Virus record (IMG/VR): IMGVR_UViG_3300025519_000001
Span: 90,760 to 154,759 of that record
Reading direction: 5' to 3' (one strand)
Source: a virus
Length of the DNA: 64,000 nucleotides
The translations under genes were made by a program, and so were the position numbers. The notes beneath the pieces were generated by a model. The model was given only the letters and a program-made list of their open reading frames with translations, ran no database searches and was not told where the DNA came from. Below, piece after piece: positions 2,063-64,000 of the stretch (position 1 is its first letter; each line of letters starts with the position of its first letter).

Positions 2063-2065
2063 TTA

Positions 2066-3424
2066 TCACGCCTCCTTATATTCAAAAACTGGACGAAATC
2101 CTTGTGAAACACCATTCCAAACCGTATTCCAATTTGATTGTGCCCAAGCTAGATCGGTGGTATTCGTTGTATTAGTTGGTCTTGCCATACCCCTGTGAAT
2201 TCTTCCGGTATTTGACGATGGGTTTGGAGATCCGCCTAGCGGATGAGTCATTCCGTTTATTGGAGTATCTTGACACCACGTTACTACATTTTGATCATGG
2301 TGCCACACATTTGGATCATTGGGAATTGCTTTACCTCCAAGAGCACTTCTAACAATATATTTATCCCATTCGTTATTCGTAGGCCACCCTCCATATCCTT
2401 GATCTGTTGTTGAACTGTTTCCATTAGCATCTGCAAAAGCCACTCCACCCGCAAGGGATCTGACTATGCCTATCGGGATATTATCTAAATCAACATCATA
2501 AGGAGCACTAGGCGGTTCAAAGTTGCTTTCCCACCTAGCAATACCTTTTACAAAACAAAATTCATCAATATAACTATTGCTTTGCGCTTCAGGTGCATTT
2601 AATGCTATACCACCAATAAATAAAGTTTTATCAGAAACATTAATATCAACTGTATGCGTTATGCTGGCATCTAATTTTCCGTTTATATACAAAGATAATG
2701 TTGTTCCGCGTTTTACTACTGCTAAATGATACCAAGTATTATCTTGAGCAATAGTTGTTCCAATTAATTGAGGTCCACCATAAGTTTGAACACTAAAAAC
2801 AGATGGGTAAGAATTATGTCTATCTAATAAAGCCAGTACGCCCTGTTTCCAACCCGTTCCTACTTGCCAAACTCTCGGATATGGGTTTATTTTTGACTTG
2901 GAATAATACCAGCAATCAATAGTCCAATCAATACCATTTGGTAACGAATAATCATTAGAAACACCACAGTCTATCCAACTATTCGCACTACCATCGAAAG
3001 AAGCACTACCAATTCCAAATTTCTTATTATCCAAAGAGAAATATACATTTGTTAAATGACTTATAGTATGCCCAAGCTCATCTTTGAATGTAGTATCATC
3101 CATGTGCATCAAAACTTTTTGAGGTTTTAATGCATTTCTCATTCCTTCTACAAATTTTCCTGAATTCAAAGTATCCCATGAGATATTGTATTGGACTACT
3201 CTATCAGCAATCAACAATCCCCTATCAACTTTAACAAAATAGAAATAGCCATTTGGAGTTGCTGACCCGTTTACAGGAATTTCTGTTCCTGCTGTACCTC
3301 CAAGGTTACTAAATGTCCCCGCCGCCCCACTTGATGCTTGGTAATTACAAACAATATAATCTCCAATCTGCATATCTTCAATTCTTGTACGCAAAGACCC
3401 CGTTGTTGCAGGTACAGGACTCAT
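2066..3424 (-). CDS. Virion adhesin with LamG/concanavalin-like domain inserted in a lectin-like domain
   Basis: LamG motifs (DWTIDCW, NTWYHLAVVKRG, LYINGKL, YIDEF) inside LIADRVVQYNISWDTLN...NEWDKYIV...GFRPVF. Confidence 0.75.
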   Translation of the reverse strand: MSPVPATTGSLRTRIEDMQIGDYIVCNYQASSGAAGTFSNLGGTAGTEIPVNGSATPNGYFYFVKVDRGLLIADRVVQYNISWDTLNSGKFVEGMRNALKPQKVLMHMDDTTFKDELGHTISHLTNVYFSLDNKKFGIGSASFDGSANSWIDCGVSNDYSLPNGIDWTIDCWYYSKSKINPYPRVWQVGTGWKQGVLALLDRHNSYPSVFSVQTYGGPQLIGTTIAQDNTWYHLAVVKRGTTLSLYINGKLDASITHTVDINVSDKTLFIGGIALNAPEAQSNSYIDEFCFVKGIARWESNFEPPSAPYDVDLDNIPIGIVRSLAGGVAFADANGNSSTTDQGYGGWPTNNEWDKYIVRSALGGKAIPNDPNVWHHDQNVVTWCQDTPINGMTHPLGGSPNPSSNTGRIHRGMARPTNTTNTTDLAWAQSNWNTVWNGVSQGFRPVFEYKEA

Positions 3425-3438
3425 ATTAACTAGCCTCC

Positions 3439-4179
3439 TTATTGTTTTTTTAGATATATCTCGACTTCTTTAATATATTTTCCAACAGTTTGTCTATTAA
3501 GTCCGTACATTTCTGCTATCTGAATTCGAGTTAATTTATCTTTCTTGTTTAACTCATACATTTTAAGTTTTTCATCGAAAGTGAAATACTTTCCAGGGAA
3601 GCGAGCTTTTATCATATTTTCCACATGCTCTTTACTTTGCTTTCTTCCAGTTAATGCTCTTCTCATATTCTCAATATGTTGCGGCGACAATCCACCATAA
3701 TTTACATTATTTTTACCCTTGCGCAATTCACTTAATTTCTTTCTTGTCTCTTCACTATGTTTAAATCCTTTTAATTTTTTCCTGATTTTTTCACGATGTT
3801 CTAAAGTTATAACCTTACCTTTGTTTGACTCGCTAATTTTTCTTCTAACTTCTTCTGGCCATTCAAAATTATCATATCCACCGTGTCGATTATTGAAACC
3901 ATGCTGCAATGAATCATAGTAGTCAATATAGTATTTTTCTTTTTCATCAAGTTCTTCTATTGAACAGTATTCTAACACTTCAAATTTAAAGTAATTTTCA
4001 CCATGTTTATTATAAGAATTCTGAAGATGTTTATTTGGATGACAATTGTATTTTAACCATCTTTTATGAGTTTCTAATCTCATGTTTACATTCTTACTTA
4101 CACCGATATAACACTTTCCATTTGCTGTATTTGTTATCTTATATACACCACTGACAATAAGAGTCGCCGGAACTGGCAT
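3439..4179 (-). mobile_element. Free-standing GIY-YIG homing endonuclease with NUMOD3 repeats and C-terminal HTH
   Basis: SGVYKITN...CYIG, E..YI..Y...GFN, HSEETRKKLSE repeats; ATG 4179 follows SD GAGGTG. Confidence 0.9.
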
Positions 4180-4193
4180 TAAAACCACCTCAA

Positions 4194-5735
4194 TTAAACA
4201 GCATCAGCCTCTACTTTAATATCAAAAGTGCCACTACCAACTGCCGTATCACTAGTGCTTAATCTTACATAAAATTCAATTGTTTCATCAAAATTTAATT
4301 GTTGATCATATATCAAATAACTTTCCGCAACAAATGGATTATTAGATTTGCTCAATTCTATCGTTAATCCCTCAACATCTGTTTCTGTAGTTAGTCTAAT
4401 ATTTTTTACATTAAAAGGATATGTGTTTGTCAAAATAACCTTTACATCTAATGAGGTTTGACCAGAAATCATAGTATTAAAATCAAGATATTGAAGAATC
4501 TCTCCAAATGATGTTGAATAGTATTGTTGGGATGTATCCATGAACATTAGACCTGAATATTTCTTATCAAGCTCGCTATAATTAATTGTTATTGATGATA
4601 CAGTTGGTGTAATAGTAGTGATTTTAGAATTTGCAGATAATGAGTTTACTTCTAAAACTTCATTTGAATTGTTTTGCTCTAAATAATAAGCAAAGCGAAT
4701 GTTATTACTGTATAAACCAAGTTCTTCCCATTGAGATTGAGTTATTGCATTAAATTCTGCACTTGTCATCCCATTTTCTTTTATATCTAATAAATTAGTA
4801 ACATCTACAAAAATCCAATTATTACTTTTAAAAGATTTCCACGAGTTTCCATTATCATTACTAGTAATAATTTTAAAAATTGGCCCTGATTCTTCAATAT
4901 CTTCTAATTGGATGTTTTGTAATTCTCCATTAAAACTAACATCTTTAATCTGTTTAACAATCTGTGGCTTAGGTATGGCATTTATTGTAATTGCATTTAA
5001 ATCATTACTAGCCTCATTCCAAATCAAAATTTCAAAATTAGAAAGTTCTAAGACTGTATTAGAAGCATATGATAATTCATATTCGCTCAATCCATAATTC
5101 ACAAACAAATCTTTATTTAATGAATTGCTTGTGCTTATAATTTCCCAAGAAGCATTAGAAGAATTATAAGTTAAAATATTATTTTCTTTTTCAACTAGTA
5201 TAAGAGGATTGTTACCATATGGCAAAAAACCAACTGGAGGCGTATATGAAAAGCTTGTTTGTCCGAAATTAGCATAATATGTAATACTACCATTAGAGGT
5301 TCCACTCGTACAAACTGGATAAATTGTTCCTAATGTTTTAATATCTGTATGTGAAATACCTTGACTAACACCATTTTTCCAAAACTCTAAAGTTCCATTA
5401 TCCAAATCCACAAGAACACTTATTATGTCTCCATTTGTATAAGATGCTCCGTATGATTTTCCACCAGGAGATGTTGTTCCATTATAACCATAATATATCC
5501 TAACATTTGCATTTGAAGAAACTCCATTAGACATAGATACAGTTGAACTTGCTATTCCAATAAATTTGGCTGATGCACCACTTACATTTGTAACTTCCCA
5601 ATACCATTTTCCATAACTTTTACCAACTGTTGTTCTGATTCCCTGACTTATCGCATTAATAGTGACTGTATAATTGTCACTACTTAATGTAACGTTACTT
5701 CCTTTATTATTTGGGTCCCATGTGACAATCGCCAT
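4194..5735 (-). CDS. SPRY/B30.2-domain virion protein
   Basis: GKWYWEV, GDIISVLVDLDNGTLEFWKNGVSQG, ANFG...PPVGF motifs. Confidence 0.8.
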   Translation of the reverse strand: MAIVTWDPNNKGSNVTLSSDNYTVTINAISQGIRTTVGKSYGKWYWEVTNVSGASAKFIGIASSTVSMSNGVSSNANVRIYYGYNGTTSPGGKSYGASYTNGDIISVLVDLDNGTLEFWKNGVSQGISHTDIKTLGTIYPVCTSGTSNGSITYYANFGQTSFSYTPPVGFLPYGNNPLILVEKENNILTYNSSNASWEIISTSNSLNKDLFVNYGLSEYELSYASNTVLELSNFEILIWNEASNDLNAITINAIPKPQIVKQIKDVSFNGELQNIQLEDIEESGPIFKIITSNDNGNSWKSFKSNNWIFVDVTNLLDIKENGMTSAEFNAITQSQWEELGLYSNNIRFAYYLEQNNSNEVLEVNSLSANSKITTITPTVSSITINYSELDKKYSGLMFMDTSQQYYSTSFGEILQYLDFNTMISGQTSLDVKVILTNTYPFNVKNIRLTTETDVEGLTIELSKSNNPFVAESYLIYDQQLNFDETIEFYVRLSTSDTAVGSGTFDIKVEADAV

Positions 5736-6751
5736 TATATCACCTTAAATTTTTCAATAGTCTTAAAATTAGATACATCTATACTCTTTCTAAACAAAGC
5801 GCCATCATATGTCCAAGATAAATCTTTTTCTAATTGCTCTTCATATGTTGTTTTTAATTTTAAACTACCATCAAAATCAACATATGGATTTTCTTCAAAT
5901 TGAGTTTTCTCGGCTTCTGTAAAATCATTTACAATCATATTGTATATTTTATTATCACCAACCAACTCAACTTTTACTTTAATATATCTTCCCTGTGGAG
6001 ATGTGATATTTCCATTATCATCAATCAATGACCATTCTGAAAAATTCACATAATCATTTGATGTAGATGTATAGATATTTATAGTGGTTCCCGTTGGAAT
6101 TGTACTAACATTGGTGACTGAACCTATTTGTCTTACATATTGACTAAAATCGATAATGTTTGACTCAAAATATCCATTATTTTTATAGAAGGATGTTTTT
6201 TCAAACATTTCAATATAAGCTATATTAACATATATATCATTTTTATTTGTTATATAAATTCTATAATATAAAAAACTGTCATTGTTATTAAGTGTAAATG
6301 TTTTTTTGTTTACACTTGTGTCCCAAGAATGATTACTCTGCGTATCTAAAGTCGTCCAATTACTGTTATCATTTGATCCTTGAAATTCCCAGTCTCTTGG
6401 TGAATAATTAGGGTATGAAGGGTCTATGGTGATTGAATATCTTTTAATTATTTTAGGTAAAGTAAATTTGTACCCAATATAACTAGGATTAGTGTCTGTT
6501 TGCCAATAATTATTACTAGATTCAAAAGCGTAATAGCCCGGATATCCATGCATAAAACTATTACGAATTACTTGCCCACTTGGTGTTCCATCAGAAGTCA
6601 TTTCTGGAATTGATGTTTCGGATAAAATAATTTCTCCCACAAACGTTAATTGCAACTTTTCATCGACAACTTCAACATCAATTTTGTTGCCTCTATTCCA
6701 ATCTAGGCTTTTATTACTATCAATAATAACCGCCATTAGCTTACCACCCAA
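5735..6751 (-). CDS. Discoidin (F5/8 type C) domain virion protein
   Basis: YIGYKF, SPRDWEFQGSND..WTTLD, YYRIYIT motifs; likely start 6736. Confidence 0.75.
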   Translation of the reverse strand: MGGKLMAVIIDSNKSLDWNRGNKIDVEVVDEKLQLTFVGEIILSETSIPEMTSDGTPSGQVIRNSFMHGYPGYYAFESSNNYWQTDTNPSYIGYKFTLPKIIKRYSITIDPSYPNYSPRDWEFQGSNDNSNWTTLDTQSNHSWDTSVNKKTFTLNNNDSFLYYRIYITNKNDIYVNIAYIEMFEKTSFYKNNGYFESNIIDFSQYVRQIGSVTNVSTIPTGTTINIYTSTSNDYVNFSEWSLIDDNGNITSPQGRYIKVKVELVGDNKIYNMIVNDFTEAEKTQFEENPYVDFDGSLKLKTTYEEQLEKDLSWTYDGALFRKSIDVSNFKTIEKFKVI

Positions 6752-7350
6752 TTCATCTCATAAGCATGATTGGCTTGCATGGGTGCATCATATTCGAAAG
6801 TTTCAAGACTATTTTTCTTAACAATAAATACCCCTTTATCAAAATCTCTATCGGAAACAAGTCTAAAATTCAAATAAACGTTACCACCATAGGGAACACA
6901 ACAAATGGCTTTAAAATTAAAATTAACATCATTTATTTTTAAATTTTGTTTATATCCAAAGTTATATTGCGAAATATTAGACCTAAGTGATCCATTTTCA
7001 CCAGAAGGAGTGAAATCAGAAAAAGCATTTTTAAATTGAATTATATCATTATATGAAATAAACGGTTGACCAGTCAAATAATATTCTGCGCTTGTTGTTT
7101 TATCTTTGTAGATAATTTCAATCATTCGGCCACAAATCTTAAAGTAACCACCATAAACCTCATAGTACATATTTAAACCCATTCCAACTAAACCAAAACG
7201 AATCAACGAAGAACGATCAATATCTTGAAAGTTATTTGGAGAACCATCTTCAAAAGAATATTCAGGGAAAAATGTGCCATTACTCATAGCCGCAACCCAG
7301 ATAAAATCTTGATCTTGAACTGGGCTATTTAAATATAATTTATCTCTCAT
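6736..7350 (-). CDS. Phage protein of the tail/fibre module
   Basis: 204-aa ORF with SD, co-oriented; no motif recognised. Confidence 0.6.
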   Translation of the reverse strand: MRDKLYLNSPVQDQDFIWVAAMSNGTFFPEYSFEDGSPNNFQDIDRSSLIRFGLVGMGLNMYYEVYGGYFKICGRMIEIIYKDKTTSAEYYLTGQPFISYNDIIQFKNAFSDFTPSGENGSLRSNISQYNFGYKQNLKINDVNFNFKAICCVPYGGNVYLNFRLVSDRDFDKGVFIVKKNSLETFEYDAPMQANHAYEMNWVVS

Positions 7351-7390
7351 ATATAATTAATCAACTCCCATTGTATTGTGAGCCAAAACA

Positions 7391-7420
7391 AAAAGGGCTA
7401 GATAAAAAATCTAGCCCCAA
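7391..7420. terminator. Intrinsic terminator hairpin
   Basis: GGGCTAGAT-aaaaa-ATCTAGCCC flanked by A/T runs. Confidence 0.6.
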
Positions 7421-7429
7421 AAACGAAAC

Positions 7430-7903
7430 TTATTGATACGTATAGAAAACACGTAACAAGAAATCAACAGTACCAGCAGTTGCCGTTACAGATGGCATTG
7501 CAAAAGCCGTAACTTGTGCAAAATTACTAGCTGAATTAGCTACTGTACCATCATTTGCAGTACCTTTTATAACTCCAGCAGGTGCAGTACCGCCAGCTTT
7601 AATAGGTCTTGCAGTATCTCCACCAATCGGGGAAAAAGTTTGCTCATTCATTGTGTCACATTTTACTTGAACCCACTTTTCAGTAATGATGTCGCCATTA
7701 TTACCGCCAGTAATGTCTTTTGTGGTGATCATACAACCTTCAGCGTCAGCAACATCCGTAGAGCCACCACGATTGTTCCAGATAAGGAATATTGCACTCT
7801 CAGAAGAAGTACCTGCGTCTACCGTTTTAAGATCCCATAACGTCCATTGTTCTGTGTTTCCTTGTTTCCACCAACTAATTACAGGACTAGCCATAATTAT
7901 CAT
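7430..7903 (-). CDS. Small beta-rich virion protein
   Basis: 157 aa, G/T/A-rich, in fibre module. Confidence 0.55.
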   Translation of the reverse strand: MIIMASPVISWWKQGNTEQWTLWDLKTVDAGTSSESAIFLIWNNRGGSTDVADAEGCMITTKDITGGNNGDIITEKWVQVKCDTMNEQTFSPIGGDTARPIKAGGTAPAGVIKGTANDGTVANSASNFAQVTAFAMPSVTATAGTVDFLLRVFYTYQ

Positions 7904-9084
7904 TCCTCCAAAGTATTAGAATTTGTTTTTATATCCAAATTAACTGTTATTCCCTTTATGTTTCCATCATATTGATAAACATTAATCCTAAAATAATCGC
8001 CTTTTGTTACATTTACATCTTCAACAACGCCACCTGTTGCAATTATATTATTTGGTTCAAAAGATAAATTTTCCGAAAAAATATTATCCCATGTGCCACT
8101 TAAAAATTCACTTTCCGATATTTTTTCAATACCAATTTGGGTACTAACCGAAATACCACTTTCCACACAATCAGCTTTAATATTTACGATTTCGCCGTCA
8201 AATGGAATTTGACTAAAACCAACAACATATTGAACACCTTGATCAATTATTTTGGGAATTTTAAATAAAACCCTTCTTAAAATAAAATTCTGATAATCTT
8301 CTTTGTGCAGAAGACCATCAGAATTTTCGGAGACATATGGAATTGCTTCTCCGATGATATTTCCAACCAATTGCCATTGATATGATACAACACCATCATA
8401 ACGATAAATATCGCCCGTTGTATTTATTAATACCTGCCATCCATTTTCGGGTTCAGGATAAACTGTTTCTAAATCATCATATGTGTCTACAGCAGGTTTT
8501 CTAATTACTACTGTTGTAGTTGCTGCATCGTAAGCAGCCTGCGCCGCTTGATTTGCATGATCTGCGGCCACATTAGCATTGTCAGTAGCAACATTGGCAT
8601 TATTGGTAGCATCTCTAGCATCGGAGATTGCTTTATTTATCTCGATTATTTTTTCGTTTATTGTTTTCGTGTAATTTACAAGTTGATCTACATAGTCCTG
8701 CAAAGTAACCAACACATCTGGATTATTTCTTGCAATGGCGTAGATTCTGCTGGCTGGATAAAGAATCAAGCCTCTCCCTAGATAAGAGCAGACTAATGTA
8801 TTACCTTCTTGTGAAGGGTGAAATTGAATAATCCCTACTGCATAGTTGACAACAAATTCATTTTCTTTGAGTGCCTTTGTCTTTTTGTAAACTTCCTCTG
8901 GAACTTCCACGAACCCTGTTATTTGAACTTTATGAGTATATGAGGGAACTTCTAAAAGAGTAATTTTATTGTTGATAACCGGAAGAGAATCGGAACGTGG
9001 AATATAAGGATCTTCTGGCGTTCCTTTTCGCCAAACAATAACGCTTGAATCGATGTGTTCAAGATATGTTTTTAACTCAGGCAT
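7900..9084 (-). CDS. Baseplate/fibre-attachment protein with coiled-coil
   Basis: NEFVVNY..GIIQF N-domain, Ala/Asn-rich heptads, YPEPENGW motif; follows tail tip genes. Confidence 0.6.
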   Translation of the reverse strand: MPELKTYLEHIDSSVIVWRKGTPEDPYIPRSDSLPVINNKITLLEVPSYTHKVQITGFVEVPEEVYKKTKALKENEFVVNYAVGIIQFHPSQEGNTLVCSYLGRGLILYPASRIYAIARNNPDVLVTLQDYVDQLVNYTKTINEKIIEINKAISDARDATNNANVATDNANVAADHANQAAQAAYDAATTTVVIRKPAVDTYDDLETVYPEPENGWQVLINTTGDIYRYDGVVSYQWQLVGNIIGEAIPYVSENSDGLLHKEDYQNFILRRVLFKIPKIIDQGVQYVVGFSQIPFDGEIVNIKADCVESGISVSTQIGIEKISESEFLSGTWDNIFSENLSFEPNNIIATGGVVEDVNVTKGDYFRINVYQYDGNIKGITVNLDIKTNSNTLEE

Positions 9085-9101
9085 CTATGCACCTCCTTTC
9101 A

Positions 9102-9596
9102 TTAGTTGGGGATATTTAATTTTGTATTTCCATTTGCAATTGTTGTTGTTGTCCCAAGACATGTGGTTACTTGAGAGCCAATCAAAGCTATAGGCTGTCC
9201 ACCTAACTTTGCTTTTGAACTTCCCGATATAATTCTTCCATTCCCAGAACCAGACGTAGGAGAAGTTGGAATATACCTAGTTGTTGATGTATTCGAAGGA
9301 ATGGGGGGATCGGCAACCCAAGTTTCAACTGTCTGATCACCAACTTTTGCAACATTAGTTCCGCCAATTTTCATTTTTGAAGAAGGGACAGATACATAGC
9401 CAGTAATTTTAGCTCCTGTGCTACCCGATCCTGACGGAACCCATCCATAATCATCTTGCCAAGCAATACAGTTTCCTTCTTCGTCCGTTTCCACACAATG
9501 GCTACCAATTACTTGCCAAGTTTCAATGTTGTATGTGACATATCCGGGTTTTGTTGAAGGTGCTATTGTTGAACCATTTACTGCAACTCCAGACAT
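9102..9596 (-). CDS. PAAR-like spike-tip protein
   Basis: Repeated IGGTNVAKVGD / LGGQPIALIGS, IISGSS..K, terminal TTCLG. Confidence 0.6.
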   Translation of the reverse strand: MSGVAVNGSTIAPSTKPGYVTYNIETWQVIGSHCVETDEEGNCIAWQDDYGWVPSGSGSTGAKITGYVSVPSSKMKIGGTNVAKVGDQTVETWVADPPIPSNTSTTRYIPTSPTSGSGNGRIISGSSKAKLGGQPIALIGSQVTTCLGTTTTIANGNTKLNIPN

Positions 9597-9732
9597 ACTG
9601 AATCACCTAATCTAATAAAATGACAAAATAAAAAAGCCTTGATTTTTAAGGCTTTTTTAAAATTAAAAAGTGCATGAAATTACACTTTCATGCACTAAAA
9701 ATAAAAACCACCTATAAAAGAATAAATAGTTA

Positions 9733-10155
9733 TTAATTAATAAAAGCTATTTTATGATTAATACTTGCTACCTCAATTGGATCTAAATCTTCACACATAA
9801 AATCTTCATGTTGAATTTTCTGCATAATATCTGTAAACAATTCAACACATATATCTTTTCTGTTTGTTGTTAATAATTCTCTACTTATTACTACATTATT
9901 AACTCTAAATTTCTTATCACAATCGATTATTGAAGTATGATTAAATGGATTTCGATTAATATCCGCCGATTCAATAATAAATACATATGGAGGCTCACCA
10001 GAAAGGTGTTTTAACGGCTTGTAAGTTTGACATTTAATAAATTCTTTTTCTAAACCTTCTTTTATACATATATACATATGAGAATATACAGCCAATGACG
10101 AATTTATGTCGGGAAAAGGAATTCTCATCCTAACCACATCTTTTTGTTCAATCAA
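9733..10155 (-). CDS. Putative toxin (possibly PemK/MazF-like fold)
   Basis: N-term KDVVRMRIPFPD resembles MazF-like GDIV.V.FPF.D; overlaps antitoxin stop by 8 nt. Confidence 0.45.
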   Translation of the reverse strand: MIEQKDVVRMRIPFPDINSSLAVYSHMYICIKEGLEKEFIKCQTYKPLKHLSGEPPYVFIIESADINRNPFNHTSIIDCDKKFRVNNVVISRELLTTNRKDICVELFTDIMQKIQHEDFMCEDLDPIEVASINHKIAFIN

Positions 10156-10819
10156 CCAAAATCACTCCGTCTTCATCTATTGATAAATAAACCGGATTGG
10201 TTAATTCTTTATTATACGAAAGCTTTTCAATAACTTCTATGTGTTCTGATGTTAATCTATTTAAATCTTTTTTAGGAATGAGAAAATTTTTTGAATCTAC
10301 GTTTAAAACTTCAGTTGAATTAATAAAATCTGGCGTATAAATTTCTTTAAAAAATAGAAGTTTTTGAATATCGTTTTCACTTAAAAACTCTTCATATAAA
10401 GGTACTTGTAATTTACCTCTATTTATTTCATCTTCTTTTGAATTCCATATATTAAATCCATGGGTTAATTTTGATAATTCCATTTCCGTATGAACTCTAA
10501 CTAAAAAACAACTAAGTTCTGCTCTATCCTCATTTACGTCTGAAGAATACATTCTAAATTGATCCAAAGCATTTGCTGCAAAATCTAAATATTCATATGT
10601 GTAATCCCCATAAACATCACTAAAAACAGGGCCATGAATATATCCCTTTAAAGATCTTAACTCATAAATATCATTTTCAATCTTCGAATACAATTCGTAG
10701 AAAAATAAAAATTTTTGTAATTTAAGTGGTGAATTAAATTCTCTTTCATGGTTATTTCTTAGCCAACCACATAAAATACGCTTTCTGGAACTAGAATTTA
10801 GGCCCGGATACCTATACAA
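10148..10819 (-). CDS. Panacea/SocA (DUF4065)-like antitoxin
   Basis: SPLKLQKFLFF, HGPVFSDVY, ELSKLTH..W motifs. Confidence 0.7.
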   Translation of the reverse strand: MYRYPGLNSSSRKRILCGWLRNNHEREFNSPLKLQKFLFFYELYSKIENDIYELRSLKGYIHGPVFSDVYGDYTYEYLDFAANALDQFRMYSSDVNEDRAELSCFLVRVHTEMELSKLTHGFNIWNSKEDEINRGKLQVPLYEEFLSENDIQKLLFFKEIYTPDFINSTEVLNVDSKNFLIPKKDLNRLTSEHIEVIEKLSYNKELTNPVYLSIDEDGVILVD

Positions 10820-10865
10820 ATTTTCACCCCCAAATTAAAGATAACGCAATACGAACACCTGAACT

Positions 10866-10894
10866 ATTATAGCATTGCGCTTTTAAAAAGTAAA
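10866..10894 (-). promoter_or_regulatory. Sigma-A promoter of the TA moron
   Basis: TTTACT-17-TATAAT with extended TG. Confidence 0.7.
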
Positions 10895-10924
10895 CATTTG
10901 GAAGCTAAATTTTTATTAAGACTT

Positions 10925-10960
10925 AAATAGAGGCCGATCACCATGACCAGCCTCTATTTT
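10925..10960. terminator. Terminator after surface-protein moron
   Basis: AAATAGAGGC...GCCTCTATTT hairpin. Confidence 0.5.
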
Positions 10961-10972
10961 GGTTACACGGTT

Positions 10973-11674
10973 TTAGAACATGCCTTTTGTATCGATATAA
11001 AACGAGTACCCCTTACCATTAATAATCAAGTGGAATAGTAGATTCTCTGTACCAGCATCTACCTTGCTTTTCCTGATCGTCCCAGTCACAGTGGTTCCAG
11101 CTTTTACGGGGGAAGAGAATTCGTTCTTTTCTCCTATTGTTCCATAGGTTTTATATTCTTTACCCGGAATATTATAATTAGCACCAAGAACGTTTGATCC
11201 ATAGTTAACCTGAAGATCCTTATCAGAATTATTCACAATCGTAACATTAAAGTCAGTCGAATACTCCCCAAGAGAAACCGAATTAACTGTTACCGAAACA
11301 TCATCATGAGTAACTGTAATAGGAAGTTTTTTGAATTCAAATCTTGGTTTATCTGTTGATGAATCTGTTGATGATGTAGAAGAATTATCTTGATTAACCG
11401 TACTTGAACTCGTAGCTGAATTTACACTATCCAATGAAACAACACCGCCTTTGTAATCAACCCTATATCCCGTAATAGTTCCAATATCACGCACAGGCAA
11501 ATATGTCTTGTTGTTAATGACAACTGGTTTTTCTGACAATGTTTTTTCTTGTCCATTTACTACGATTTTTAGGCTAGTTACTGTTACTGTTAGATTGCTT
11601 GCAGCATAAGATACACCACTGAAAAATAAGGCCCCACATAGAAACGCAGTAAGTAGTTTAAGTTTTTGGTTCAT
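10973..11674 (-). CDS. Secreted/surface protein with copper-amine-oxidase N-terminal (stalk) domain; moron
   Basis: Signal peptide (FLCGALFFSGVSYA), IVVNG...PVVINNKTYLPVRDIG...GYRVDY, Ser/Thr linker, Ig-like C-domain. Confidence 0.75.
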   Translation of the reverse strand: MNQKLKLLTAFLCGALFFSGVSYAASNLTVTVTSLKIVVNGQEKTLSEKPVVINNKTYLPVRDIGTITGYRVDYKGGVVSLDSVNSATSSSTVNQDNSSTSSTDSSTDKPRFEFKKLPITVTHDDVSVTVNSVSLGEYSTDFNVTIVNNSDKDLQVNYGSNVLGANYNIPGKEYKTYGTIGEKNEFSSPVKAGTTVTGTIRKSKVDAGTENLLFHLIINGKGYSFYIDTKGMF

Positions 11675-11716
11675 TATGATTCCTCCATTTTATATATTTT
11701 GTTTTATTCATAATTA

Positions 11717-11745
11717 ATTATATTAAAAATCGGAGGAAATGTCTA
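11717..11745 (-). promoter_or_regulatory. Sigma-A promoter of the surface-protein moron
   Basis: TAGACA-17-TATAAT. Confidence 0.7.
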
Positions 11746-11750
11746 CCTTT

Positions 11751-14700
11751 TTAAGAGAAATTATATTGAGTTCCTGATATATTAACTGTTCCTGTTGCAG
11801 TCAAATTAATATTTCCAGTTATATTTGCCGTCATTCCGCTAGTATTAATTGTAATAGAACCTGATGTTTTATGGGTCATTGTAATATCATTTCCGTTTTG
11901 AGTAATTATAAAATTTGTTCCACTATCATGTTCTAACTTAATAATTCCATTACTACAATGTAAAGTAATCCCCAAATCTTTTAGTAATAGTGAACGCTCA
12001 AGTCCGGTTGACCGTGCATATGATTTAACTTCCAATCCGTCTGCTGGTTTAGTGATAATAGCTTTACCAGAAAATTGAGAAAACCCATCACCAATACCCA
12101 TATAAATAGAAGGATAAGCATCAAATCCACTACCTTCAAAAGTAATTATCATTTTTTCCTTTTCATTCATTGAGTATTGCATTACAGGCCAAGCAGTAAC
12201 TTCAGTAGTCATTAAACCTGTTTGAGAAGAATTAACCCAATACAAAGGTCTTCCATCAGGCAAAGTTACTTGCGTACCGGAACCTTGAACTGTACCAGTT
12301 ATCCATCTTGCAACATTCTCTTGAATGACAATATAGTTAGACCAATCAGAAAGAGCGGCATTTGTGAGGGTAGATAATCTTCCAGCCGTCAAATCACTAA
12401 TAAAACCAACATCAGCAGTTACAAACTTTGCGCTTATCAGTTGAGCATCAACTGCCCCTGCACCAACAATGTCAAAATTATTCATATACATTTTCTTATT
12501 CTCCGAATCAATTATGACATTGTTATCTCCATCTTTAACTATCAATTTCTTAAATATAGCAGTACCATCAGGCTTTATCCATGTTGGTGCATTCGTAGCA
12601 TCTTCAGCACCAGCCCAAAATCCCTGCGAAGGATAGATTTTAACGACTCCACCTTGACCATCGCGAAGGATGATGTAACTTCCCTCGATTCCTCCGTCTA
12701 CAAAGAAACTGTTCGCAATCTGTATATCTTGCGCGTGAACCACACCATCCAAATCAGCCCAAAAAACATCTTTCCAGTTTGGATTTTCAGCAGTTCCAAT
12801 ATTCTTTTGTATTACGAACCCTCTAGTTCCACTCATATTTGAGCGGTACATATTATCACTTCTTGTAGCTGTGATCCCAGATGTATAATCTATAATGACA
12901 TCATTAAAGTAGGCACCAAATTGTACTGACGAATATTTGATTGAGTCATTAATAGCATTGACGATGTTTACAACTTCATCGTAATAATTCTTGAATTTTG
13001 ATATAAATTCATCTCGATCTATAATTGAAGTCTCGTCCATATTAACTAACAAAGGATTAAGATAATTCATAAGATCATTGTAGGCATTCGTAAAATTAGT
13101 TGGATTAATACGAATCGAGTTATCTCTTGTGGTGGTGGCATATGCCTGTGCTTGTGCTAGGAGTTTTTGATATTCTGATTTAATCCGTTCTCTTTCTCCA
13201 AGTATCTGAAGTTTTTCAATGGCTGTTAATTTCCCATCTGTGATGATATTGTCGAACTTCCCAATATCCATAAATTTTGTATAACTATCAAGCAGAAGTT
13301 CGTCAGTATCACTAACTATCTTAAGTCGTTTTGTTGTCATGTCTTCTGAATAAAGCAGACCTTCATTATCAACATAAAATTTGTCTTTATATTCGACGCC
13401 ATTCCATTGTTGAATTTTAAAGCCTACTTCAGAATTTATGATGATTTTATTGATGATCCTCGCATTAGGATCATCTGAAGCATAACGATTAACGAGAATG
13501 CCATATTGGTCAGGATTTTCTTCATATAGACCAATCTTCATGGCTTCGCGGCCAAAACGATCTGTAATAGTAGTCTTTGGGCCTTCGGTCAACCAGATGC
13601 CGTCACTGTCTCCGATGGTGACACGCTGGCCTAGGATCAGTTTCCCTAAAACCATTTCAGCAATGAGTCCATCGGCTGTGATGGCTGTCTCGTACCGCAA
13701 CCCTCCAGATCTGGTCAAACCAAGTGCGCCGTTGGTCAAACGAAGAAATCTTAAAGGATCATTTGGATCAGTAATCGTGATACCCTTACCATCAATAGTT
13801 ACAGTCTGGTTAACGGCCATATTAATTTGATTAGTAACCTTATCCCAAAAATTCTCAAACAACTGAGAAAACTCGCTAGTATCAACAACGGCCTGACCCC
13901 ATCTGGATTTATTTAAATCAACGACAGATGTAGTGTTTTTAGCATCGTGCATAAATTTTTCAAGCTGCAAAGCACCAGTTTTTAAATCCTTAAATTGAGC
14001 GATAGTTAATTTAACTGTCCCTTGTTCGTAATCAAATTCCATTTCTATTATTTTAGCTTCTACAAGAAGATCAAACATTTCATATTTAATAATTACTTTA
14101 TCTCCTAAAAACAATTGATTCCAATTTCTTTGCTCCTCTAGAACCTCTAAGAAATTAACAATATCAATATCTAATGTAAGCTTAGGGACTTTTAATTCAT
14201 CAAATCTCTTTTTAGCTTCTTCATATAAATCTGTGTCTTCAATAAATGTATCATCTTGCCAATCATATTCAATAATAAACCGATCTAATTCCATCCATTG
14301 TTCCGGCGTAAAATTATTTTCAACAGACAATAAATCTCGTATAGCATCAATATTTTGATCGACAGAATTTATTTGAGAATTTACGCTATCTATCTCCGCT
14401 TGTTTGGCATTAATCTGTATTTGCTTATTATCAAAATTATATTTTTCAACAATTTGCTCTTCGTTTCCGCTAGTATTAAATTCATCTTCACTAATATTTG
14501 CAACCTGAATAAAAACACCCGTATTACCTGAACCGGAGATGGTTACAGTTAATGTTGTTGTTTGTGGTACATCGGAACCAGTCGAAACTTTTTTTGAGAC
14601 AACCCAATATCCACTCATCATATACGATGATTGTCCATTGATAGTTAAAGTTTTTCCGACCACATCATCTACTTTAACCAAAACAGCATATTTATATGGA

Positions 14701-58079: not shown

Positions 58080-58108
58080 TTGACATTATGCGATGCCGCG
58101 AGTATAAT
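58080..58108 (+). promoter_or_regulatory. Perfect consensus sigma-A early promoter with A-tract UP element
   Basis: TTGACA-17-TATAAT with upstream A tracts. Confidence 0.9.
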
Positions 58109-59462: not shown

Positions 59463-59741
59463 ATGACAAAAAACCAAACGATCATCCTTTCGGAACTTGC
59501 TCGTCTTGGAATTAAATTCCAATACGACGGCCAAAACCTCCTCACGTTCCAAGAATGGAAAAAGCGCGGCTTTTACGTTCGGCGCGGCGAAAAGGCGTTT
59601 CTCCAAGTGCCTTTGTGGACGCCATGCGAAAAAACCGTTACAAAAGACGGAAAAGAAGAAAAGCAATTCTATTTTATTCTCAAAAAGGCTTCTCTCTTTG
59701 CGCCTTCTCAAGTTGAACGCCTTATAGTAAAAGGCGCATAA
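59463..59741 (+). CDS. ArdC-N-like ssDNA-binding domain protein
   Basis: TFQEWKKRGFYVRRGEKA...LW...F..SQV. Confidence 0.7.
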   Translation: MTKNQTIILSELARLGIKFQYDGQNLLTFQEWKKRGFYVRRGEKAFLQVPLWTPCEKTVTKDGKEEKQFYFILKKASLFAPSQVERLIVKGA

Positions 59742-59857
59742 CAGGAGGTAAAATATACTACAAGAGATAAAAAAATTTGAGTTGATCGACGGAACGAAAA
59801 AATATATAAGCCGTGATAAAATAATTGATATTATGATATGAAGGGAAGGAAATAAAT

Positions 59858-60079
59858 ATGCATAAGTACAATCCCACTACTAACGCAATTGTTATAGGCG
59901 ATTCGTTCCCGTTCCTCTTTTCACGTATCCGTTGCAAGCTGACGGATACAATTTACAAGGCAAAAAACGCCTACCGGTCGCCGGAAGGAGACGATATCTA
60001 TACATTCGTTTCTGATTGCGGAAAATCGTTTGACTCCGCGATCTATGTCGGATTTTTTGACAAGTACGAAAGCGTATAG
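59858..60079 (+). CDS. Small early protein
   Basis: SD AAGGA, 73 aa. Confidence 0.55.
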   Translation: MHKYNPTTNAIVIGDSFPFLFSRIRCKLTDTIYKAKNAYRSPEGDDIYTFVSDCGKSFDSAIYVGFFDKYESV

Positions 60080-60117
60080 ATCTAGGAGCTCGCTCGAGAG
60101 TGTCGGACAGCCACCAT

Positions 60118-60144
60118 AGAAGCCTAATAATAGGCTTCTTTTTT
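60118..60144 (+). terminator. Intrinsic terminator inside the early operon
   Basis: AGAAGCCTA-ataa-TAGGCTTCT-TTTTT. Confidence 0.7.
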
Positions 60145-60180
60145 ATAAAAACAAAAAAACAAAAAATGGAGGAATCTACA

Positions 60181-60438
60181 ATGTCCGAAAACAAAAAGAA
60201 AGCTATTCTGTCCGCTGCTCGCGGAAGCTGGCAGTACAATGTAGCTAGCATGTTGGCATCTGGTCGGCCTATCCAGTCTCCCTTTTCAACGTTGCGCGGA
60301 AAAGCAAAAAATTACGAGTTACATTACAAATCATCTTTCCTGTCGCTCCTCTCCCGTCTCCAAGCAGCAGGAATCCGCATTGAGCGGACGCCGGGAGTCC
60401 GCGGCGGCGAGTATACTGCTACATATCGAGTAGTATAA
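60181..60438 (+). CDS. Small basic early protein
   Basis: SD TGGAGG, MSENKKKAIL... Confidence 0.7.
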   Translation: MSENKKKAILSAARGSWQYNVASMLASGRPIQSPFSTLRGKAKNYELHYKSSFLSLLSRLQAAGIRIERTPGVRGGEYTATYRVV

Positions 60439-60535
60439 CGGTCGCGATATGCTAGGACGCATAACTAAAATATGATATTATGGTTGTGCGTCCGATGGAT
60501 AGCGCGACTATCCAAAAAAAAGAAGGAGGAATAGT

Positions 60536-60682
60536 ATGAAACCTTTGACGCTGAGCGACATTATAAAAGCCTTCGACACTCAGAACAAAGACAAGCCCCA
60601 AAAGCATATTTTTTATGACGGCTTTCCCGGTCTGCCGCGCATAACGGCAGACGATTTGCGCGACTATCAGCGGCCCTTTTAA
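60536..60682 (+). CDS. Small early protein (48 aa)
   Basis: Manual: SD AAGGAGG, MKPLTLSDIIKAFD... Confidence 0.6.
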   Translation: MKPLTLSDIIKAFDTQNKDKPQKHIFYDGFPGLPRITADDLRDYQRPF

Positions 60683-60793
60683 TTGTTTTTACCATGCTAC
60701 TAGGACGCATAACAGCAACATGATACAATTACACACAGTATAGGCGCTGTTGTGCGTTCAAAAACCTATATTGGAAAATGGAGGAACAAAAAA

Positions 60794-60940
60794 ATGAGAA
60801 ATACGATATTAAGAGATATGGATACTTTGCATCATGATCCTGTTAATGGCTTTTATGACAAATCTTTAGACATGTTTTTTTCTGACTTGGGCGAATGGTT
60901 AAAATTTAAATATGAGAAAAAATGGAGTGATATTTTATGA
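60794..60940 (+). CDS. Small early protein
   Basis: SD TGGAGG, MRNTILRDMD... Confidence 0.6.
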   Translation: MRNTILRDMDTLHHDPVNGFYDKSLDMFFSDLGEWLKFKYEKKWSDIL

Positions 60941-61197
60941 ACATAACAATTGAACAATATCATGAGTATATGTTTTTAATCGAACAAGAAATGCTTAATA
61001 ATAAAATGCTATATAACAAAGCAGCCAACGAAAAGTGGGATGGATGGGAAGAAACATGTAACAATTTAAGAGAAAGAAATAAGCAATTGAGAAATACTTG
61101 GTTCATGCTCAATAAACCCGAAAATGGAACGCCGAATGGATGCGCAGAATTTTATGCGCCAGAAAAGCAACGATATATAAATAATCTTATTCCTTGA
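60937..61197 (+). CDS. Small early protein
   Basis: ATGA overlap with previous gene, SD GGAG. Confidence 0.65.
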   Translation: MNITIEQYHEYMFLIEQEMLNNKMLYNKAANEKWDGWEETCNNLRERNKQLRNTWFMLNKPENGTPNGCAEFYAPEKQRYINNLIP

Positions 61198-61311
61198 TCA
61201 TTTATTCTACCATGCTAGAACGCACAAATGGCCGTTCGTGCGTTCAATGAATGGTAAAAACATCCACTATAAAAATAAAATATTACATATCACAAAAAGG
61301 AGTAATGAAAA

Positions 61312-61839
61312 ATGGAAATCAGAATCTATGTTGCTAACCTTGCCGCTTATAACGCCGGCTTTCTTGTCGGAGAGTGGATCGACCTTCCACTTTCTGACGA
61401 AGAACTGCGCGAAAAAATCCAGTCCATTCTCGACGCCTGGAACGATGGCTTTTCGCCGTCGGAAGAATATGCCATTCATGACTATGAAGCGCCTTTCTCC
61501 ATTGGCGAATATGACAGTCCGTATAAAATCAATGAATGGGCAGAAAGACTGTCAAACATCAGCGAAGATGAAGAAGTAATAAATGCCATTATTAACCATT
61601 TTTCGACTGTAGAAGAAGCGATAGAAACCATTGAAAACGGCGAATATCGAATTTATAATGATTGTGATGACATGGCGGACGTAGCATTCCAATTATGGGA
61701 GGAATCCGGCAGACTTGCAGAAGTCGAAAAAGTCATTTCTCCCAGTTATATCGACTGGGAAGCAATCGGAAGGGATATGGAAATTGAAGGAACGTTTATA
61801 AAAACAAATTATAATACGTTTGTTGAAATTATTGGATAG
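61312..61839 (+). CDS. ardA: ArdA antirestriction protein (type I R-M DNA mimic)
   Basis: IYVANLAAYNAG.LVGEWIDLP, EEYAIHDYE, YIDWEAIGRDM; very acidic. Confidence 0.93.
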   Translation: MEIRIYVANLAAYNAGFLVGEWIDLPLSDEELREKIQSILDAWNDGFSPSEEYAIHDYEAPFSIGEYDSPYKINEWAERLSNISEDEEVINAIINHFSTVEEAIETIENGEYRIYNDCDDMADVAFQLWEESGRLAEVEKVISPSYIDWEAIGRDMEIEGTFIKTNYNTFVEIIG

Positions 61840-61851
61840 AGGGTGGTTTAA

Positions 61852-62046
61852 ATGGGCGTATTCAATGGCGTTATTAAAGGACAAAACAAAACTGTAACTT
61901 ATATGACGTCGGATGGATTGAAGGATACTATAAATCTTGTAATAACAAATGTAAATGAAACGCATATTTGCGGACTTCAAGAAGTTTGCGGAGGCAGAAA
62001 AATCGAAAGAATAATTTACGGCGATTATATTATTAGTATCCAATAA
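61852..62046 (+). CDS. Small early protein
   Basis: SD GAGGG, 64 aa. Confidence 0.55.
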   Translation: MGVFNGVIKGQNKTVTYMTSDGLKDTINLVITNVNETHICGLQEVCGGRKIERIIYGDYIISIQ

Positions 62047-62154
62047 CCAGTTACAACGCTTTTCAGCCGCATAACAGGCATACAAGCCTATTGTGCGGCT
62101 TATAAAGCGTTGTAGTAGCGCAAGCAGCGCCATAATAACAGGAGGCGATATAAC

Positions 62155-62583
62155 ATGTCCAAATATGCACTTGTAACCAACGCCAACAATCAAACAATCA
62201 AAATGGTCTATAACAGCCAGGCCATAGGAGTAATGGATTCTGCTACATATCGCGCTACTAAATCTTATTTAAAGCGTTACCTTTTCCATGAAACAAATCA
62301 AGCGGGAATTCCGCTTGAGTACCACAGACACATAACAGATTCGTTTCCGAATTTCGAAATTGTTTTTGAAAATGAACAGGATTCACAAGCTTGCGCGAAG
62401 CTTGCGCTTCTTTTCAGGCTTCAAAAAGGCGTTCATGACGTTAATAAAATTTTTCTAATGGCGCAGCGCATAGAAAATTTCACAAGAGAGGAGGCGGCCT
62501 ATTGGCTTTCTAGGACGTTGCATGGCACGGACGAACATAGGAAATGGGCAGTAAAAGGCTTGCGGATTATGTTGGCTGGATGA
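62155..62583 (+). CDS. Early protein with FTREEAAYWL helical domain
   Basis: SD AGGAGG; LALLFRLQ...FTREEAAYWL...WA..GLRIML. Confidence 0.65.
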   Translation: MSKYALVTNANNQTIKMVYNSQAIGVMDSATYRATKSYLKRYLFHETNQAGIPLEYHRHITDSFPNFEIVFENEQDSQACAKLALLFRLQKGVHDVNKIFLMAQRIENFTREEAAYWLSRTLHGTDEHRKWAVKGLRIMLAG

Positions 62584-62703
62584 TGTTATGATAATCTAAC
62601 AACAGATAGAACCGGCAAATGTTCGGTGCGCCGGTTCTATTAAAAACAAAGTAGGCGAGAGGGGCCTACCAAATTGACTCGTGATATCAAGGAGGAAAAT
62701 CAC

Positions 62704-63156
62704 ATGAAAAAATGGTATATCGATGATGTTTTTGTGCGCGAAGGCCGCATGTATGATCGCGGCTACTACATTGCGCAGAATGACGCGAAGGCATGGGTCG
62801 AGTGGCGAGAGCCTATTCCAAACGGCGAGACATACACATTTCCGCTCTCGGAATGCGCACATGAAGATGGTACGCCGATCCAAGTTGAGGACGGCGAACT
62901 AATTGGTACAATAGTCGAAGTCTCTGTGGATCGTCTCGAAATCCGCGAAGACTTTCCAAATCGGGACGAGGCATACGCTATTCTGACGGACGGCCAGCAC
63001 TTTGCCTTCGCGTGGGGGCCGAAATACCCCTACGCCGAAATAGTTCCGGCGCAGGATGTGAGGGACGGCGAGAGCGGGCTGGAGTGGTACGCCACCGAGC
63101 ATGAGGCTCGGGCGGCGATGAACGAGGCGACGGATGCCTGGAACACGCAGGGCTAG
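62704..63156 (+). CDS. Acidic early protein
   Basis: SD AAGGAGG, MKKWYIDDV...; higher GC than flanks. Confidence 0.7.
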   Translation: MKKWYIDDVFVREGRMYDRGYYIAQNDAKAWVEWREPIPNGETYTFPLSECAHEDGTPIQVEDGELIGTIVEVSVDRLEIREDFPNRDEAYAILTDGQHFAFAWGPKYPYAEIVPAQDVRDGESGLEWYATEHEARAAMNEATDAWNTQG

Positions 63157-63211
63157 GGACTGTCTCGCGCAAGCCGAGACCGCCGGGAAACCGGCGCTCC
63201 GCTCAACCTGC
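63147..63211 (+). ncRNA. Twister-sister-like self-cleaving ribozyme (three-way type), copy 1
   Basis: GCAGG-GCTAG-GGA-CT-GTCTCG CGCAAGC CGAGAC-CGCCGG GAAA CCGGCG-C-TCC-GCTCA-A-CCTGC; predicted cut C63204/A63205. Confidence 0.8.
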
Positions 63212-63271
63212 TATAACAGGCGGCGCGTAAGACCGCACCAAATGGGCGGCGGCGCGAAAGGAGAATGAAAT

Positions 63272-63874
63272 ATGACTTGGGATGCATGGGATTATTACAA
63301 TAATTGCCCCGTTTGTGGCGAGGCAAACTATACCAGTCATGGTTATTGCTCGGACGAGCACTACCTGACTTCGCTCAATAATGAGGAAAAATTTGCATAT
63401 CTATCCCAAAAAGCAGCCAAAGACGCTGCCGAAAGGGAGCGAGAAGCGAAGCAAGTACAGCGCATTATTTCATTCATTAACACCCATAAACCCGTATACC
63501 AAATGCCGGCAGATTCTGTCTGCTTTTGGTGGGAAGATCGCTATCGCCCTGATTTTACGGATTTTCTCGGGAGATGGCAACGTAACAAATGCTTTTGTTA
63601 CGGTCGCGTGGTTTACGGTGATAGAGGCATATGGGCGGAAAGTCTCCTTGAACTGGAGGAGGCTTTCCACCAAAAGAAAGTAAAAATTGTCTACGACATT
63701 AAAGATCATTTGGGTAATTTAGTGTCGTGGGAAGACTTCCTGTATTACGCGGTTACGGCCTGCGTCAATACGGAAGAGCAGTTCCTTGGCATCAAAAATT
63801 CCGCCAAAGAATTCATTCTTGGGCGGAATAGCAAAATCCAGAGGTATTCTTTTGCAGATGGGCTAGAACCCTGA
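63272..63874 (+). CDS. Early protein with N-terminal Zn finger
   Basis: CPVC...YCS..H; SD AAGGAG. Confidence 0.7.
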   Translation: MTWDAWDYYNNCPVCGEANYTSHGYCSDEHYLTSLNNEEKFAYLSQKAAKDAAEREREAKQVQRIISFINTHKPVYQMPADSVCFWWEDRYRPDFTDFLGRWQRNKCFCYGRVVYGDRGIWAESLLELEEAFHQKKVKIVYDIKDHLGNLVSWEDFLYYAVTACVNTEEQFLGIKNSAKEFILGRNSKIQRYSFADGLEP

Positions 63875-63939
63875 GCAGGGCTAGGCCCAGTCCCGTGAAA
63901 GCCGGGGCCGCCCCGAAAGGGGCGCGGCGCTCAACCTGC
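63875..63939 (+). ncRNA. Twister-sister-like self-cleaving ribozyme (three-way type), copy 2
   Basis: GCAGGGCTAGGCCCAGTCCCGTGAAAGCCGGGGCCGCCCCGAAAGGGGCGCGGCGCTCAACCTGC closely matches, from memory, the crystallised three-way twister-sister; predicted cut C63932/A63933. Confidence 0.88.
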
Positions 63940-63972
63940 TATAACAGCAGGAAAAATTTAGGAGGGATTCAC

Positions 63973-64000
63973 ATGGAAAAGACTATTCAAATTAAGAGTG
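63973..64000 (+). CDS. Start of next early gene (truncated by window end)
   Basis: SD AGGAGG, MEKTIQIKS... Confidence 0.5.

Follow-up and report, generated by a model that had tools for sequence, protein, structure and literature searches.

The window analysed here, a stretch of 64,000 nucleotides, is the final 64 kb of a 154,759-nt IMG/VR phage record (96% complete) and contained tail and head genes, an integrase gene and a RecD-like gene. As the capsid had distant matches in phages of Bacillus, Clostridia and Lactococcus, and the closest named relatives of one early gene belonged to Cohnella, Paenibacillus and Bacillus phage Shbh1, the host is probably a member of the Bacillota. From ~58 kb onward, small plus-strand genes formed a block behind a perfect sigma-A consensus promoter (Table 1). 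This block encoded ArdA and the N-terminal domain of ArdC and, as judged from its sequence, is an early, anti-defence block. Two ArdA paralogues with 79% DNA identity were present (window 61238-61799 and G000:C1:992-1551), their upstream segments being duplicated as well, and one assembly (L546) skipped one module, which suggests modular shuffling among strains. Long imperfect intergenic hairpins, possibly RNase III sites, occurred at other early junctions (window 62045-62120; L003:1590-1655; L003:940-1005).

A preliminary description had placed two twister-sister-like ribozymes at stop codons on either side of one gene near the window end. Both copies were present as placed (63147-63219 and 63875-63947, 81% identical over 73 nt), and the proposed check with the Rfam twister-sister model RF02681 returned 49.4 bits (E = 4.9e-8) and 62.2 bits (E = 1e-11), respectively, with matches spanning the full model (1-81). 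The count of two had to be revised, as three copies occupied three consecutive gene junctions. The third lay outside the window, at the start of the record (G000:C1:115-186, predicted cut 175/176), and scored 42 bits, again along the whole model, so that all three exceeded the gathering cut-off of 34 bits; cmscan with gathering filters missed this copy, which was scored by the other Rfam searches. The window stops at a contig break, and two independent assemblies spanned the 107-nt gap between record end and start. An assembly artefact at the contig end was ruled out, as these assemblies agreed with the record (98.8-100% match) and bridged the gap. The order was gene A (150 aa), ribozyme 1, gene B (200 aa), ribozyme 2, gene C (81 aa), ribozyme 3 and gene D (180 aa); therefore two genes are bracketed by ribozymes, not one, and the predicted single-gene fragments measured 728 nt and 350 nt. 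No terminator-like site was found between genes A and C. At the site of copy 3, L551:1425-1480 carried a chimera in which copy 2 supplies the 5' half and copy 1 the 3' half, either a natural recombinant or an assembly error.

Table 1. Features of the early block and its ribozyme junctions, in window coordinates.
Feature	Position	Strand	Remarks
Perfect sigma-A consensus promoter, head of early block	58080..58108	+	consensus match only
Second candidate sigma-A promoter	61631-61659	+	consensus match only
Gene A	62704..63156	+	150 aa; last codons Gln-Gly-stop run through P1 and L1 of ribozyme 1
Twister-sister ribozyme 1, three-way junction	63147..63211	+	RF02681, 49.4 bits
Ribozyme 1, stems	P1 63147-51/63207-11; P2 63157-59/63198-200; P4 63162-67/63175-80; P5 63181-86/63191-96		
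Ribozyme 1, L1	63152-56/63201-06		predicted cut 63204/63205
L1 UAG serving as gene A stop	63154..63156	+	used likewise in 36 relatives, 26 protein families
5' end of 3' product 1	63205..63220	+	two unpaired bases; freed P1 strand pairs CAGG 63217-20 (4 bp; 5-bp alternative register)
ATAACAG word in hairpin loops	63213..63219 and 63941-63947	+	separate strand-polar array, not ribozyme family
Second hairpin in gene B leader	63222..63257	+	resembles leaders in some relatives (L016, L025, L030)
Shine-Dalgarno site, gene B	63257..63263	+	ATG 67 nt past cut
Gene B, 200-aa orphan protein	63272..63874	+	predicted single-gene mRNA 63205-63932, 728 nt
Twister-sister ribozyme 2, three-way junction	63874..63940	+	RF02681, 62.2 bits
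Ribozyme 2, stems	P1 63874-79/63935-40; P2 63885-87/63926-28; P4 63890-95/63903-08; P5 63909-14/63919-24		
Ribozyme 2, L1	63880-84/63929-34		predicted cut 63932/63933
5' end of 3' product 2	63933..63951	+	two unpaired bases; 6-bp hairpin 63935-40/63946-51, 5-nt loop
Shine-Dalgarno site, gene C	63960..63965	+	after A-rich spacer; ATG 40 nt past cut
Gene C start	63973..64000	+	81 aa, completed from assemblies L546/L549; ribozyme 3 then gene D beyond window

Gene A had no Pfam or PHROG match, and gene B had no usable match in Pfam, PHROGs, NCBIfam, tblastn of cultured phages, a 5.8-billion-protein search, a viral-contig scan or the ESM Atlas. The C-terminal half of gene D (L003:218-760; 97 relatives) was Csx16-like (PF09652, 24.4 bits against a cut-off of 25). 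Because Csx16 is a cA4 ring nuclease (10.1101/2024.09.24.614671), gene D is a candidate anti-type III CRISPR gene. About 3 kb further along the early block, two more ribozyme-like elements lay at gene junctions, both scoring below the Rfam cut-offs: a partial pistol-like element with a visible 7-bp pseudoknot (L004 ~2741-2822, 30.3 bits, cut-off 34.5) and a type II hammerhead-like element whose loop contained the upstream stop (L004:3320-3388, 33.9 bits, cut-off 37). A pistol pattern script recovered no further examples.

The three compensatory stem pairs reported earlier were found as written, the P4 of copy 2 including one G-U pair, and the C/A steps proposed as cut sites coincided with those predicted by homology to C62-A63 (PMC5660989). 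Self-cleavage at these steps with Mg2+ would be expected from family membership. The copies lacked P3 (a 13-nt deletion relative to the model), which assigns them to the three-way-junction type rather than the four-way subtype, and two inner hairpins were present in 180 of the 183 matches with an L1 of this type. All three copies possessed the conserved L1 bases (G5, C6, A8, G9; G59, C60, U61, C62, A63, four-way numbering) and the conserved SL4 bases (G29, G31, A33, G35, C37). L1 position 7, the non-conserved A7 site, was a U, which creates a UAG; an A7U variant remains active (PMC5660989). In copy 1, which the preliminary description had noted to contain the upstream TAG, this UAG is the stop codon of the upstream 150-aa ORF; as also noted there, copy 2 starts one base past a TGA (63872-63874), the A of which lengthens its P1 to 6 bp. 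SL4 position 30 was a C in copy 1 (rare, 4/228; a U in the solved structure), a U in copy 2, and an A in copy 3, with a U at position 34. Positions 30 and 34 covaried across the 228 relatives described below (U-A in 93, A-U in 85, G-G in 24), in agreement with the non-canonical U30-A34 pair of the crystal structure. In the isolated core the ribozyme fold was the minimum free energy structure, and P2, P4 and P5 covaried among the copies and their relatives. The glmS model gave no Rfam match and the flanking genes were unrelated, which places these elements outside the glmS-type ligand-gated class.

Relatives were collected by scanning viral, genome and metagenome collections with patterns and keeping the matches that had P1, P2, the SL4 motif and stable inner hairpins; two loose scans gave mostly chance matches, which the structure filter removed. 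The filtered scans yielded 228 distinct elements, a set that is skewed to the P2 sequences used in the patterns and whose members are related, so that p-values overstate support. A subset was confirmed by Rfam, and some elements with an L1 of this type scored under the cut-off. A blastn search for copy 1 in cultured phages gave no recognisable match. The placement at gene junctions proved general: the upstream stop fell within -20 to +2 of L1 in 136 of 196 informative relatives (~20 expected if uniform), with peaks at -6 to -11 and at +2. In 179 of the 228, a start led by a Shine-Dalgarno (SD) site followed, at a median of 41 nt past the cut. As the flanking genes belonged to 96 upstream and 113 downstream protein families, the unit is therefore a portable junction and not the regulator of a single gene. 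Of the ORFs that entered the element, 36 stopped at the L1 UAG and 3 read further in, a preference that fits selection against cutting inside a reading frame, and in one protein family the stop lay either 7 nt ahead of L1 or within it. In one relative (L015:4509-6853), six gene junctions in a row each held a ribozyme, five of them twister-sister and one a type II hammerhead. RAGATH-5 RNAs at L189:1683-1735 and 2689-2741 lay directly past stop codons and ahead of SD sites, a layout like that of the ribozymes.

The claim that the downstream RNA can refold into a 5'-terminal hairpin once cut was borne out by conservation with covariation among the relatives. The hairpin of copy 2 comprised 6 bp (ViennaRNA, -8.7 kcal/mol), and its partner strand was a repeat of the P1 5' strand, hence a rival to P1; that of copy 1, with only 4-5 bp and a competing register, was the weakest of the three. 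The hairpins are thus short, at 4-6 bp. The sequence 3' of P1, where the partner lies, was absent from every search pattern. A hairpin of at least 4 bp from the first base of the freed P1 strand was present in 147 of 228 elements, compared to 54.4 by shuffling, and absent from the remaining 81; within the P1 clade of the copies studied here, it was present in 87 of 99, compared to 20.5. With Watson-Crick pairs only and non-redundant elements, 60 of 135 had the hairpin, against a shuffle mean of 11.5 (maximum 20) and a mean of 10.3 (maximum 19) when P1 was swapped between classes. The partner tracked eight different P1 sequences, and all four pairs occurred as 2-4 pair types. Loops were mostly 3-5 nt long and free in sequence. 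A looser measure based on minimum free energy gave a smaller excess (178 vs 123.7), and 163 of these 178 hairpins left 1-2 unpaired 5' bases. In a control on the upstream side, 2 of 134 elements had sequence able to sequester the partner. The coding bases 5' of copy 1 (window 63137-63141) can base-pair with the partner strand of the hairpin, which favours the active fold; this feature was not conserved (2/134).

Hairpin presence tracked the downstream SD-led gene (OR 4.9, p = 3e-6, which overstates support because the relatives are akin), also within the clade of these copies (OR 7.7) and after removal of an SD-less clade (OR 2.8). This last clade (L427, L429, L430, L441, L462, L473 and others), mainly from marine samples, had the hairpin in 0 of 17 members and no SD ahead of any of 69 ORFs. 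The best matches of one of its genes were Flavobacteriaceae phages, and its members are probably phages of Bacteroidota. To our knowledge, Bacteroidota mostly lack RNase J. A clade without SD sites and without the hairpin offers a natural control.

The preliminary description had also treated a tail shared by the copies as invariant. It was present in both, but it is not specific to the ribozymes, as the loops vary freely among relatives and the ATAACAG word within it occurs region-wide; the tail was accordingly ruled out as a ribozyme part. In the ~20-kb early region, the plus strand held 52 copies of ATAACAG and the minus strand one, within and between genes (~1.4 expected); the array covered G000:C1:150497-154759 and 1-13506 (window ~59738-64000 onward). 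In 14 cases a stem of 5 bp or longer enclosed it, compared to 6 in a flank-swap control, and it formed the P5 loop of copy 3. The word was also found at ~20 of 174 ribozyme loci, with 232 sense and 22 antisense occurrences overall. It fills the hairpin loops here and is absent from most relatives' loops, and is therefore a second signal overlaid on the cassette. A reading of the tail as an extended -10 promoter was rejected, as there was no matching -35 and no promoter call at the site, and a literature search on the word found no paper.

Folding energies were computed for both states of the junction. After the cut, the hairpin was more stable than the re-docked fold, by 5 kcal/mol in one fragment and 10 kcal/mol in the other. 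Before the cut, with the partner already transcribed, copies 2 and 3 preferred the hairpin to P1 by 6.5 and 0.7 kcal/mol; these energies are secondary-structure equilibria that exclude Mg2+, tertiary contacts and kinetics, and activity in context depends on tertiary contacts and kinetics. Across the relatives, P1 and the hairpin were nearly isoenergetic (median difference 0.5 kcal/mol).

These observations are best explained by a portable junction of stop codon, cut, hairpin, spacer and ribosome-binding site that divides the polycistron and keeps RNase J1 away from each 5'-OH product, a reading that we consider moderately probable. The cassette would consist of a stop at or just ahead of P1, or borrowed from L1, the twister-sister core, the P1 5' strand repeated a few nucleotides past P1, an A-rich spacer, an SD site and a start codon. 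The core would fold during transcription and, with Mg2+, would cut at C/A, as expected for the family. The upstream piece would retain its stop codon, and its 3' end, a GC-rich structure carrying a 2',3'-cyclic phosphate, should impede 3' exonucleases. On the downstream piece, the 7 nt left over would swap out of P1 into the local hairpin, as the covariation indicates, and by the computed energies this would free the product, hinder re-docking and leave a 5'-OH end with about two unpaired bases. In a Bacillota host, by precedent, the hairpin would then block RNase J1, which would otherwise degrade 5'-OH ends made by ribozymes. The early anti-defence transcript would thereby yield single-gene mRNAs (728 nt and 350 nt) with separately set stability. 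Because the hairpin competes with P1 before the cut, cleavage may be partial.

Several lines of earlier work agree with such a role. Polycistron processing has been suggested for bacterial ribozymes (PMC6765202; PMC4604425), RNase J1 degrades the 5'-OH product of glmS and 5' hairpins stabilise mRNA in Bacilli (PMC3997798), and hairpins on the processed cggR-gapA and glnRA mRNAs of B. subtilis raise product level by blocking RNase J1, an effect lost on J1 depletion (10.1101/2023.03.12.532304). Of the earlier proposal that cleavage excises the gene B mRNA with a hairpin-protected 5'-OH end, the hairpin and the junction placement are upheld by the comparative data, and protection of the processed end would follow by analogy with B. 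subtilis. Type II hammerheads occupied junctions of the same kind and leave a built-in 5' hairpin on the product; unlike them, twister-sister leaves only seven bases and therefore needs an added partner. The 3' leftover of the pistol-like element paired weakly and gave no support for a hairpin rule.

The preliminary description had raised the possibility that ribosome termination gates folding. In such a translation-gated switch, a ribosome at the upstream stop would cover the P1 5' strand and the downstream hairpin would take the 3' strand, turning the ribozyme off, so that it cuts only without upstream translation. The stop peaks lie where a terminating ribosome would overlap P1, the near-equal energies of the two folds would suit a switch, and masking the ribosome footprint in copy 1 flipped the fold from P1 (0.9) to the hairpin (0.9). 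At the ~5 per minute quoted in PMC11620745, cleavage is slower than transcription through the partner strand. Against gating, hairpin presence was unrelated to upstream stop proximity (OR 1.3, p = 0.45), tracking the downstream SD-led gene instead, the protein family mentioned above tolerated a 9-nt shift of its stop, and sequence that could sequester the partner lay upstream in only the 2 of 134 elements. Tight gene packing behind stop codons is usual in phage operons, and the 36:3 preference for the L1 UAG is explained by avoidance of non-stop mRNA. Gating is sterically possible in the models, unsupported by these comparisons and unlikely. If true, it would provide a ligand-free, ribosome-gated natural ribozyme switch, and the early anti-defence operon would be cut only when upstream translation fails, e.g. 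in a host-induced translation arrest.

A second alternative holds that the hairpin is a device for product release and translation rather than a nuclease shield, pulling the leftover from P1, preventing re-ligation or cross-pairing with the identical P1 of the next copy and keeping the C-rich leftover off the SD site. The partner does copy the P1 5' strand, adjacent copies were cross-compatible in P1 in 54 of 62 pairs, the hairpin wins over re-docking by the margins given above, and the SD-less clade, which has nothing G-rich for mispairing, lacks it. Such a function is compatible with a junction that cuts and protects. Taken alone it leaves unexplained why a phage would cut its mRNA, and both the constant number of unpaired bases (1-2) and the parallel with hammerheads are in line with end protection, so that as a full account it appears quite unlikely.

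Exposed 5'-OH ends could also act as in glmS, bringing about fast decay of early mRNA and shutting off the early programme. B. subtilis has a 2-nt trimming activity on 5'-OH ends, and RNase J1 attacks the 5'-OH glmS product (PMC3997798). However, selection has retained a covarying hairpin precisely at the 5' end that the cut creates, and chiefly in elements followed by a gene, which makes destabilisation very unlikely.

It is very improbable that the main reason for retaining the cassettes is their use as DNA repeats in modular gene shuffling, with cleavage incidental. Identical cores with different flanking genes, the chimeric copy in L551 and the precedent of PeSL cassettes in T4-type phages (PMC2839356) speak for it, but the catalytic bases are invariant while the stems covary, which lowers DNA identity between copies, and the same junctions are also occupied by ribozymes of other classes. 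Shuffling probably arises as a side effect. Least probable of all is circularisation, in which tandem copies would excise single-gene RNAs whose chemically ligatable ends (5'-OH and cyclic phosphate) are joined by the ribozyme or RtcB: P1 was identical in all three copies and the 54 of 62 adjacent pairs were cross-compatible, but this constancy also follows from three strands needing joint change, 8 of 62 pairs were incompatible, the hairpin sequesters the required strand, and the phage has no RtcB.

A protective junction of this kind would bear on a wider question: reviews describe most bacterial and phage self-cleaving ribozymes as having no known role, with polycistron processing put forward only as a suggestion (PMC6765202). 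Conservation of the post-cleavage hairpin indicates, on comparative grounds, that the downstream product is meant to persist. Because mutations can disrupt and rebuild the hairpin while leaving catalysis intact, the question of ribozyme purpose is directly testable in B. subtilis. The covarying partner also suggests an extension of the Rfam model 3' of P1, and the cassette offers a natural part of ~110 nt for splitting and capping operon mRNAs in Gram-positive hosts.

Judged by sequence, the ribozymes themselves are typical of an established class and of its known setting. They share with twister-sister RF02681 (four-way structure 5Y87, PMC5660989) the conserved L1 and SL4 bases, the order P1-P2-P4-P5, the C/A cut step and the phage-gene context. 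They differ from 5Y87 in lacking P3, the three-way form being a known type (structure 5T5A, as described in PMC5660989), and from RF02681 in the U at the A7 position that gives the UAG and in the covarying partner strand, beyond the model, that forms the post-cleavage hairpin. Neither this partner strand nor the built-in stop or the lineage pattern appeared in the literature compared, which did not include the 5T5A paper or the 2015 discovery paper, where an earlier mention is possible. In the cggR-gapA and glnRA operons of B. subtilis (10.1101/2023.03.12.532304), a cut likewise falls near a gene junction and a downstream 5' hairpin blocks RNase J1; there the protein nuclease RNase Y leaves a 5'-monophosphate, whereas here self-cleavage is predicted to leave a 5'-OH and the hairpin arises from the ribozyme's own P1 strand. 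The glmS ribozyme also self-cleaves 5' of a gene in Bacillota and yields a 5'-OH product. In contrast to the present elements, which have no known ligand and a structured product end, glmS is ligand-dependent and destabilises its own mRNA. RNase III processes the early mRNA of T7 and SPO1/SP82, likewise cutting an early polycistron into gene-sized mRNAs at structured junctions, with the difference that a host enzyme is needed. Theta (HDV-like) ribozymes of gut phages (PMC10879173) are also small phage-encoded ribozymes that mature a transcript, with another fold and acting to trim tRNA 3' ends. The PeSL cassettes of T4-type phages (PMC2839356) resemble the present arrangement as repeated regulatory junction cassettes that allow modular shuffling, and are composed of a promoter and a terminator, with no catalysis.
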